A DNA stretch of 20,780 nt, taken from the IMG/VR virus record IMGVR_UViG_2609460218_000015, positions 1 through 20,780 of that record, one strand, 5' to 3'. Source of the DNA: a virus (taxonomy: Duplodnaviria > Heunggongvirae > Uroviricota > Caudoviricetes). The position numbers are program-made. This document shows, one piece after another, positions 18,001 through 20,780 of this stretch (position 1 is its first letter; every line of letters starts with the position of its first letter).

Positions 18001-20780
18001 GCATTCACCCAGGGCGCGGAGGGGACATTCAGTGCGGACGCGGGGGCCAGCCAGGATTCGGCGCGCTGGGGTGTGGGTAAACCGTTATATCAGGACCTGA
18101 TTGCGCGCACTAAAGCTGCATTACAGAAGAACCCGAAAAATGTGTTGCTGGCGGTGTGCTGGATGCAGGGAGAGTTTGACATGAGCGCCGCCACCTACGC
18201 ACAGCAACCTGCGCTGTTTACAGCCATGCTGAAGCAGTTTCGTGCTGACCTCACTGTGTTTAACGCGCAGTGTCATGGTGGCAGTGCTGTAAATGTGCCG
18301 TGGATTTGTGGTGACACGACGTATTACTGGAAAAACACCTACGGCACGCAGTACAACACCATTTACGGGGCGTACAAAAACAGGGAGAGTGAGGGCGTTT
18401 ATTTTGTGCCCTTCATGACAGACGGTAACGGCGTCAATACCGCCACTAACGCGCCGGCAGAAGATCCGGATATTCCGGCATCAGGATATTACGGTGCGGC
18501 ATCGAGAACGAATGGAAACCAGGTATCATCAAACCGCCCGACACATTTCAGTTCATGGGCGCGCAGGAGCATTATTCCGGATCGTATGGCAACCGCTATT
18601 CTGAACGCAGCCGGGCGCACCTCAGCCTTCATCAGTGGTAAGGCACCGGAAATCAAACCCTCGCCCGGCGGCGACACGCCATCGGGGCCGCCTGAAGATG
18701 CATCCGTACGCACAATCTCCCTGTTGCCGACAGCCGGAGATGCTGCTGAGCAGGGCTGGAGCATTAAGAATGGCGGAATTCAGTTGTCAGAGGGTGTATT
18801 TAAGATCACCAAGCAGAGCAATAAAACCTGGTCCCTGATGCATCCGGTGGATGACGCAGTCTCCCTGCTGACACGGGGTGGCAGACTGAGCTGTAAGTTT
18901 CGACTGTCAGGCGCACTGACCAACAACCAGTTCGGTCTGGGAATTTATCTGTATACCGATGTAGCGTTACCTGACGTCGTGGCGATGACCGGGACTGGTA
19001 ACCCGTTCCTGATGTCGTTCTTCACCCAGACCACAGACGGCAAACTGAATCTGATGCATCACAAGAAAGCCGGAAACACAAAGTTGGGCGAGTTCGGGAA
19101 TTACAGTAACGACTGGCAGACGCTGGAGCTGGTGTTCACCGCCGGCAGTGCCACGGTTACTCCGAAACTGAATGGAGTGGCTGGCCCGGCATTCCAGGTC
19201 ATAAAAGACAGTCTGACACTGGGACTGAATGCGNTGACGCTGACGGATATTACCAAAAATGCAGCGTATGGCGTTGAGATAGAAAGTCTGGTGCTGGAGA
19301 TAAATGCACCAGCATCATCATAAAAAGTGAGCCAGTCAAATGGAAGGTATCGTTAAACTCACCGGTAGTGTCAGTGGGTCGTCTGAGATGCCTGCATGAG
19401 TTATCAGAGCCATCAGTACTTAACTGGTGGCTTTTTTTATTGTTGTCAGCTTCCGGATAACGGGAGACGGGGTATGTACCAGATGGAAAAAATCACAACA
19501 GGTGTGTCATACACCACGTCAGCGGTGGGAACGGGCTACTGGTTCCTGCAGTTGCTGGACAGGGTTTCCCCGTCTCAGTGGGCGGCAATAGGCGTGCTGG
19601 GGAGTCTGCTGTTTGGGCTGCTGACATATCTGACTAACCTGTATTTCAAAATCAGAGAGGACCGTCGTAAGGCTGCACGGGGAGAGTAATTCAATGACTC
19701 AAAACTATGAACTGATTGTGAAAGGGATCCGCAATTTTGAGAATAAAGTTACGGTAACTTTAGCGTTACGGGACAAAAAACGCTTTGACGGTGAAATTTT
19801 TGACCTGGACATCTCGCTGGACCGTGTTGAAGGTGCCGCGCTGGAGTTTTATGAGGCAGCAGCCAGAAGGAGCATCAGACAGGTCTTCCTGGATGTTGCT
19901 GCCGGGTTATGTGAAGGGGATGAGCAGTCGCCGGAAAAGCGCCCCGTAATTTTAGAGGCGCAGGATGTGTTGATAACCTACAGAGGAAAACTACCGGGAA
20001 TAATTACGGGTTCTCTGAAGAGTCCGCCGAAATGGTAATTTTACCAGCATATTTTTCATCCAGTAATACAGCAAGCCGCCTGAAAGAGTCTTGTTGTTCC
20101 TGAGACCATTTGGGATTGCATGATTCAAACTGGATTGATGCCAGCGTTGATTGCATCTGTTCCCTTGGAATTGAGAATGCCAGATATGAGAAGGCGACGG
20201 TAAGGGTATTCACGTCTTCCCGAAGCCTGGAAATGCTGTCGAGCAACTCCTGTAGAGAAATGGTGTTATTGTCCATAAATAATCCTCATGATTGTATTGA
20301 CCTGTTAGCAGCCTGAGGCAACAGGCTGGAACTGATAAACATATCCAGGGCTCAGAAACCGATAAATCCTGATAAATATCCATGAACGCAAAAATCAGAT
20401 ACGGCCTGTCGGCTGCCGTTCTGGCGCTGATTGCCGCTGGTGCGCCTGCGCCTGACATTCTCGACCAGTTTCTGGATGAAAAGGAAGGTAACCACACCAC
20501 GGCATACCGTGATGGCGCGGGTATCTGGACCATCTGCCGCGGTGCCATCCTGGTGGATGGCAAACCTGTCGTTCCGGGCATGAAGTTGTCGAAGGAAAAA
20601 TGCGACCGGGTTAACGCCATTGAGCGTGATAAGGCGCTGGCATGGGTGGAGAAAAACATCAGAGTGCCATTGAGTGAACCCCAGAAAGCGGGGATCGCGT
20701 CATTCTGTCCGTACAACATTGGCCCCGGTAAGTGTTTTCCGTCGACGTTTTATAAACGAATTAATGCAGGTGATCGCAGG

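Follow-up and report, generated by a model that had tools for sequence, protein, structure and literature searches.

The morons of lambdoid phages include bor of phage lambda, the textbook case of an accessory gene that lies antisense beside the lysis genes, and gp15 of HK97. In this report, we examine a small antisense gene, here called X, that lies within the lysis cassette of an E. coli prophage, a tailed phage (Caudoviricetes; IMG/VR record IMGVR_UViG_2609460218_000015, positions 1 to 20,780), and we refer to the whole stretch of 20,780 nucleotides (nt) that was analysed as the window. A lambdoid lysis cassette of four genes forms the end of the window: an S21-type holin gene (S), a gene of the ydfR family, X on the opposite strand, and the 5' part of a lysozyme gene (R) (Table 1). 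A preliminary description of this stretch had placed two open reading frames (ORFs), of 114 and 90 amino acids (aa), between holin and endolysin genes, and this was confirmed in full, including the coordinates, the 35-nt overlap of the two 3' ends (20004-20038) and the flanking genes, which match the PF04971 holin and PF00959 lysozyme families. The reading that we favour, with moderate confidence, is that the two are independent accessory genes, ydfR being a late passenger and X an autonomous moron that is transcribed in the lysogen and encodes a cytoplasmic, protein-binding protein.

X has much in common with the lambdoid morons. Like them, it is a small extra gene, patchily distributed among colinear phages, of lower guanine-plus-cytosine (GC) content and antisense beside the lysis genes, and it likewise has promoter-like and terminator-like elements of its own. 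The moron-like character that had been proposed for the minus-strand gene is borne out by a discrete, low-GC indel of ~290 bp that lies antisense to the late operon and has its own Shine-Dalgarno (SD) sequence, a -10-like box and a terminator-like hairpin. There are also clear differences. Bor, Lom and gp15 are envelope proteins, whereas inspection of the X sequence (no dedicated predictor was used) found no signal peptide, N-terminal hydrophobic or lipobox motif and no transmembrane segment, the longest hydrophobic run of ~12 residues being below membrane length. Moreover, X does not lie after Rz but inside the lysis cassette, where it overlaps ydfR. As a small, acidic, soluble, antisense-encoded prophage accessory protein, X also resembles protein binders such as the anti-adaptor IraM, which we take to be an analogy of kind only; no similarity of sequence or fold between the two was detected. 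The S-ydfR-X-R part of the window has a match of 100% identity in a prophage of strain CFSAN061761 of E. coli (locus L001), which encodes an IraM homolog as another antisense gene upstream. RefSeq labels the four genes of that locus as class II holin family protein, YdfR family protein (WP_000193278), hypothetical protein (WP_000369850) and rrrQ lysozyme.

X is a genuine conserved protein-coding gene. Among 92 loci, 17 distinct coding-sequence alleles were found, nine divergent ones of which were used for tests of reading frame and selection. The X frame is the sole frame of six that is open throughout all nine alleles, the other five carrying stops in most or all of them. The ratio of nonsynonymous to synonymous substitution rates (dN/dS), calculated over codons 1-78 outside the ydfR overlap, is 0.1-0.3 in most allele pairs and 0.10-0.38 in those with dS of at least 0.25, and values of 0.47-0.61 occur in four closely related pairs only. 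Homologs of 58-99% identity and ~83-90 aa are free of internal indels, and the length of the protein is preserved even at 58% identity, in Citrobacter. It is hardly credible, then, that the minus-strand ORF is a chance frame or an annotation artefact over the ydfR-R spacer, as might be suspected of a short gene that lacks a Pfam or NCBIfam family and whose annotation is in every case that of a hypothetical protein. The open frame, the low dN/dS (rising to ~0.6 in near-identical pairs only), the absence of indels over 58-99% identity and the existence of profile relatives down to 24% identity together refute it. Conservation of the ORF was one of the points on which the preliminary description had staked its reading, and the ORF proved conserved.

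The family to which X belongs is already catalogued. The protein matches PHROG 2411 at full length (E 1.1e-58, residues 1-90 on profile positions 1-90), is called 'Ybl58' in UniRef and bears the RefSeq accession WP_000369850, the E. coli B allele (REL606, NC_012967, 1417152-1417424) being WP_000370546; ydfR for its part is a named family, and both genes are annotated in thousands of genomes. Identical copies of the X protein occur on at least 1,000 public contigs, and among complete E. coli genomes X was found at 1,354 places in 1,221 of 5,426, in two main allele groups of at least 99% and ~84% identity. The homologs described above come from Escherichia, Shigella and Citrobacter only. When 1.8 billion representatives were searched with a profile, the family could be extended to proteins of 81-97 aa and 24-42% identity that share the motif ELL..I..LR..vN.L..AFsYLaF...E...T..aL.fES.N. 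X belongs to no PADLOC family either, with no PADLOC match at E values up to 1, and Pfam searches of 19 members of the X family returned only scattered single matches with E > 0.01. Scans of viral contigs with the divergent homologs P0034 and P0043 gave no matches, and a survey of Stx-phage lysis cassettes (PMC8136144) does not mention X. A match of X to the NCBIfam model 'anti-silencing protein Mip' (E 0.037, over 15 residues) was treated as chance.

The boundaries of the X cassette are set by comparison with phages that carry ydfR only. In the alignment with vB_EcoS-733R4, homology stops at ~20036 and returns at ~20329, and the resulting, sharply bounded indel of ~290 bp consists of the X coding sequence together with 52 bp upstream; it is absent also from related ydfR-only cassettes. 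The GC content of this segment is 44.5%, against 53.2% in S and 54.4% in R. Between the E. coli B allele and the window, identity falls from 97% in ydfR to 87% in the X coding sequence and 73% in the 52 upstream bases. On these sequence comparisons, the cassette is the most divergent part of the locus, which is the usual mosaic picture. The arrangement between S and R varies among phage records: the two genes are adjacent in 933W, VT2phi_272 and phage 21, the order S-ydfR-R is common, and no more than three of the records have S-ydfR-X-R; there are longer versions as well.

The plus-strand gene belongs to a known family. Its product matches PF07041 with 145 bits (cut-off 25) over residues 1-111, so the earlier remark that neither protein holds a recognisable motif applies to X, which has no Pfam family, and not to the plus-strand gene, a DUF1327/YdfR member (E 7e-43). 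The ydfR core is present in 4,348 of the 5,426 complete E. coli genomes, which together contain it at 8,603 places, and ydfR is an accessory but common sense-strand resident of S21-type lysis cassettes. In the Qin prophage of K-12, where the order is essD-ydfR-rrrQ and X is lacking, a gene of the same family occupies the same slot after an S21-type holin and before a lysozyme gene. YdfR proteins combine a conserved N-terminal portion of ~72 residues with a variable C-terminus, giving lengths of 103, 114, 116, 211 and 268 aa. The N-terminal 72 residues of the window allele are highly similar to those of K-12 YdfR; the 103-aa K-12 protein has another sequence in place of its C-terminal module, CEGDEQSPEKRPVILEAQ...ITGSLKSPPKW, and in other phages this part is extended, to 211-268 aa. 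According to a 2026 study, residues 1-72 of K-12 YdfR bind the N-terminal domain (catalytic half) of RNase E, and the protein co-purifies with RNA and can be overproduced without toxicity or growth defect (PMC13232886); binding to RNase E has been reported for K-12 YdfR only, as distinct from the 114-aa allele of the window (PMC13232886). The gene is a poorly characterised member of the y-ome with a recent link to RNase E, and it matters here as context. Because its start codon lies 4 nt past the holin stop, ydfR is presumably expressed late, along with S and R.

Comparative genomics further shows that X is independent of ydfR and that the two are no obligate pair, and it speaks against a single module. 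The preliminary description had taken them for a two-gene insertion, possibly of a toxin-antitoxin-like kind, and had asked whether the pair co-occurs. ydfR is in fact far commoner than X (4,348 against 1,221 genomes), and X persists without it. In loci L087 and L088, X is intact although the N-terminal domain of YdfR is deleted and no ORF of more than 24 aa is left on that strand, and in L087 X is nonetheless under purifying selection. A pair of ParE-like and ParD-like genes (precomputed Pfam matches) lies just past the endolysin gene in these two loci (L087 1589-2123). In 57-60 genomes, X is intact beside iha, an adhesin/siderophore-receptor gene, and YdfR is undetectable there. A decayed but recognisable start of R lies upstream of X in these copies and the GC hairpin lies downstream; because of this fossil endolysin start, the iha-linked X is taken to be what is left of a lysis cassette, retained within a pathogenicity island. 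One such copy, on the chromosome of E. coli L26 (L097 3446-3718), encodes a 90-aa homolog 325 bp from iha and divergent to it, with insertion-sequence remnants flanking. X is also intact on a 105-kb plasmid, adjoining an autotransporter gene, and remote relatives are found at chromosomal sites and, in antisense orientation, close to a lambda-like terminase region.

That X and YdfR might nevertheless form a functional two-gene module, acting in a toxin-antitoxin-like manner, in exclusion or in abortive infection, with expression coupled by the overlap, seems quite improbable to us. It is true that the full S-ydfR-X-R stretch is found in 1,119 genomes against 1,202 with X at 80% coverage or more, so that the 35-nt overlap with ydfR is present in ~93% of X-bearing E. 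coli genomes. The Citrobacter homolog of X, which lies upstream of a different set of holin, endolysin and spanin genes, is again convergent with and overlaps a gene, of 238 aa, whose product ends in the YdfR-like motif ITGSLRVPMKL, and the remote relative P0074 is convergent with and overlaps an 85-aa gene. However, most of the 8,603 ydfR places lack X, K-12 Qin included; X remains intact and under purifying selection both in L087, with the N-terminal domain of YdfR deleted, and in the iha island and on the plasmid, with YdfR gone; and the Citrobacter partner gene gives no DUF1327 match. The ydfR 3' fragments left beside X are accounted for in another way, being kept because the 3' end of X itself and its hairpin lie there. 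Searches of PADLOC and Pfam linked neither protein to a toxin, antitoxin or defence model, and PADLOC likewise gave no match for the alternative genes found in the X slot. The two genes are convergent and not obligately linked, and K-12 YdfR was overproduced without toxicity in a strain that lacks X (PMC13232886). The C-terminal module of YdfR was considered as an obligate partner of X and dropped, as it occurs also without X. In Citrobacter meridianamericanus (L004 4087-4770), two adjacent small ORFs beside the 238-aa gene are HicA/HicB-like by sequence reading.

Under the reading that we favour, the X cassette (~290 bp, low in GC) would have been inserted antisense at the 3' end of ydfR, and X would be translated from a ribosome-binding site within the cassette and transcribed, probably, from a weak sigma-70 promoter of its own, the transcript ending at a GC hairpin and T-run inside ydfR. 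In a lysogen, transcripts from pR' stop unless Q is present, and the late operon is therefore silent; hence we infer that X would be transcribed from the resident, quiescent prophage while the late operon is off. The good SD sequence that had been reported for X is indeed present, as GAGGA 6 nt before the ATG, and it reads GAGGA or AAGGA in most alleles. The -10 box is TACAAT in four of seven distinct E. coli upstream alleles (six of eight loci aligned), and TAGCAT or CACAAT in the others; it reads TATAAT in the iha-linked copy, and its distance from the SD sequence is nearly fixed in most alleles. The -35 element is more variable, with TTGAAT, TCGACT or TTACCT in other alleles.

The candidate terminator lies 42 nt past the X stop and has a 9-nt loop. 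Each E. coli allele gives a local fold of -11 to -16 kcal/mol. The loops vary, and a T.G pair is changed to T-A both in allele L086, which has ydfR, and in the iha copy, which lacks it. In Citrobacter, another hairpin with a T-run follows directly after the stop of the homolog. These observations bear also on the possibility that X acts at the level of RNA or transcription, with antisense transcription damping leaky expression of ydfR and R (or S) or tuning the timing of lysis, and with the protein secondary. Transcription of X, between S and R, runs against that of the late operon, the final ~100 nt of ydfR at least would be matched by complementary sequence in the X messenger RNA, and two unrelated antisense small genes occupy the same slot elsewhere (gp06 of Stx2 phage 86 and an 86-aa gene of PhiR5_1, described below), such that orientation may outweigh product. 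We nonetheless regard such a role as unlikely. The hairpin would end the X transcript well before S, no Rfam family was matched in the region, and the clear purifying selection on the amino-acid sequence of X, together with the survival of an intact ORF outside lysis cassettes (iha island, plasmid and chromosomal relatives), makes a purely RNA-level role unlikely; a secondary antisense effect of X on ydfR and R could accompany its function as a protein.

As for that protein, the autonomous moron would encode an acidic, soluble, three-helix product of 10 kDa that binds another protein in the cytoplasm, its candidate partners being either a regulator of the host or some component of a phage that enters the cell. 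Under this reading, X would act neither as a DNA-binding repressor nor in the envelope. The calculated properties are consistent with this (10.2 kDa, isoelectric point 4.5, 13 acidic and 8 basic residues, net charge -5, grand average of hydropathy -0.43). An AlphaFold2 (AF2) model built with remote relatives in the alignment has a predicted local distance difference test score of 80 and consists of helices 8-35, 38-51 and 59-76 followed by a disordered tail; X is thus predicted to be an acidic three-helix cytoplasmic protein. A profile search of PDB sequences with X returned nothing below E 0.5.

Several points weigh against the favoured reading and concern the promoter, the terminator and the mode of action in turn. 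The candidate promoter is weak, its -35 element matching the consensus at four of six positions and its spacer measuring 19 nt, and a consensus promoter scan that allowed spacers of 16-18 nt, a range that excludes this one, did not report it. Transcription typically starts ~7 nt after the -10 box. The start predicted for X, at ~20283-20285, falls inside the SD sequence and would remove most of it; the promoter and the good SD sequence are therefore hard to use together. Of the sigma-70 promoter originally proposed, then, the sequence TTGCCT-19 nt-TACAAT is present as described, while its strength is in doubt for these reasons, and X probably has its own weak sigma-70 promoter. The 52 bp in which the promoter would lie are also the least conserved part of the cassette (the 73% identity in E. 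coli B given above). The candidate terminator has a run of just four T residues and a loop of 9 nt, its fold does not reach significance in a wider context of 86 nt (z -1.4), and its conservation, the iha copy excepted, could reflect protein coding by ydfR. Literature searches found no paper on X, and no transcript, transcription-start or protein data for it. Finally, structure prediction and fold searches, which had been put forward as a means of identifying the protein, yielded three helices and generic helical matches without a specific structural match, and the proposed mode of action is therefore a guess from charge and size.

The preliminary description had further supposed that the X promoter is regulated through a flanking operator, on the strength of a perfect 6-bp inverted repeat. 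The repeat exists (arms CCTGTT and AACAGG, at 20301-20306 and 20320-20325) and overlaps a second one, of 7 bp. When the 105-bp intergenic region was shuffled and searched for perfect inverted repeats of at least 6 bp with loops of 3-20 nt, one was found in 25% of shuffles, and the 7-bp CAGCCTG/CAGGCTG repeat in 6.8%. The CCTGTT/AACAGG arms are intact in two of seven distinct E. coli upstream alleles, with no compensatory changes, and the 7-bp repeat is likewise not conserved across alleles. A repeat at chance level that is not conserved likely arose by chance and offers no evidence of an operator, and the claim of an operator-flanked, regulated promoter is accordingly not supported.

The slot that X occupies is also filled by other genes. 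In Stx2 phage 86 (L093 1795-2925), a YdfR of 268 aa is followed by a convergent gene, gp06, of 104 aa, and in PhiR5_1 (L094 1788-2631) a YdfR of 211 aa is followed by a convergent 86-aa gene, labelled 'DUF1823', with a Pfam match that is sub-threshold only. Comparison of X with the PhiR5_1 86-aa protein and gp06 by hhalign detected no homology. These cases suggest that the 3' end of ydfR is a recurrent insertion point. A bolder proposal, which we consider doubtful, is that unrelated antisense genes of small soluble proteins, among them X, gp06 and the 86-aa gene, have repeatedly inserted at the ydfR-R junction, and that X is a lysogen-expressed binder of a host regulator or a blocker of superinfection. 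If true, lysis cassettes would conceal in X a new protein of exclusion or host modulation that is encoded by a single gene. Resolving X would also tell whether the ydfR-R junction is a general hotspot of insertion. At ~22% of genomes, including the B/BL21/REL606 lineage and ST131, X is among the commonest uncharacterised prophage genes of E. coli, and its presence in the laboratory B/BL21/REL606 lineage makes it easy to test. A role as a lysogen-expressed fitness or exclusion factor would extend the list of moron functions by one; no current concept would be changed, since it is well established that accessory genes can lie antisense beside lysis genes.

Table 1. Genes and sequence elements of the lysis cassette at the end of the window (window coordinates)
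Feature	Position	Strand	Basis or remark
S21-type class II (pin)holin, 71 aa, dual-start motif MYQM	19474-19689	+	PF04971 E 9e-33; phrog_9876/phrog_20
ydfR-family gene (DUF1327), 114 aa	19694-20038	+	PF07041 E 7e-43; phrog_406 E 4e-68
Candidate intrinsic terminator of X, GCGCCTC-TAAAATTAC-GGGGCGC then TTTT	19935-19961	-	inside ydfR coding sequence
Gene X, 90 aa	20004-20276	-	phrog_2411 E 1e-58
X cassette (segment missing from colinear ydfR-only phages)	20039-20328, approximate		alignment with vB_EcoS-733R4 and K-12 Qin
Shine-Dalgarno GAGGA, 6 nt before X ATG	20283-20287	-	read from sequence
-10-like TACAAT, candidate X promoter	20291-20296	-	read from sequence
Overlapping inverted repeats CCTGTT-N13-AACAGG and CAGCCTG-N6-CAGGCTG	20301-20328		sequence
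-35-like TTGCCT, 19-nt spacer, weak, variable	20316-20321	-	read from sequence
Phage lysozyme (R21/RrrQ type), 5' part, leaves window	20382-20780	+	PF00959 E 8e-17; phrog_7 endolysin

Further features of the window were noted around the lysis genes. The N-terminus of the lysozyme is hydrophobic and resembles a signal-anchor-release (SAR) sequence, as judged by sequence inspection with no predictor. Just 5' of the endolysin start codon, at 20330-20379, three direct copies of (A/C)(C/T)GATAAA(T/C)AT fall within the part of the spacer that is common to X-less phages. Upstream of the holin start, between it and a SASA esterase gene, lies a strong terminator-like hairpin on the strand of the late operon (19406-19434, plus strand; 12 pairs followed by T7), and late transcripts would pass it only with the help of Q antitermination.

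Farther upstream, genes for the transfer RNAs (tRNAs) Met-CAT, Arg-TCG and Arg-TCT lie at 16242-16491 (plus strand), downstream of the methyltransferase/Q region. Locus L001, which is otherwise identical, carries annotations for only two tRNAs (Ile, Arg), and the window thus differs from it upstream of the lysis genes. The non-coding stretch of ~1 kb from the tRNA cluster to the SASA esterase gene contains two copies of STnc100, a small-RNA family of Rfam, at 16570-16760 and 17038-17247 (plus strand; 136 and 161 bits), each lying within a direct repeat of ~470 bp and ending in a terminator-like GC hairpin. The window has N at eight positions (428, 3658, 11301, 12800, 14802, 15854, 16065 and 19234), one of which, inside the SASA esterase ORF, gives an X residue in translation. 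At 9291-9479 (plus strand), an isrK Hfq-binding RNA (62 bits) is directly followed by a C4 antisense RNA (81 bits), an order that resembles the P1/P7-type ant-immunity arrangement.

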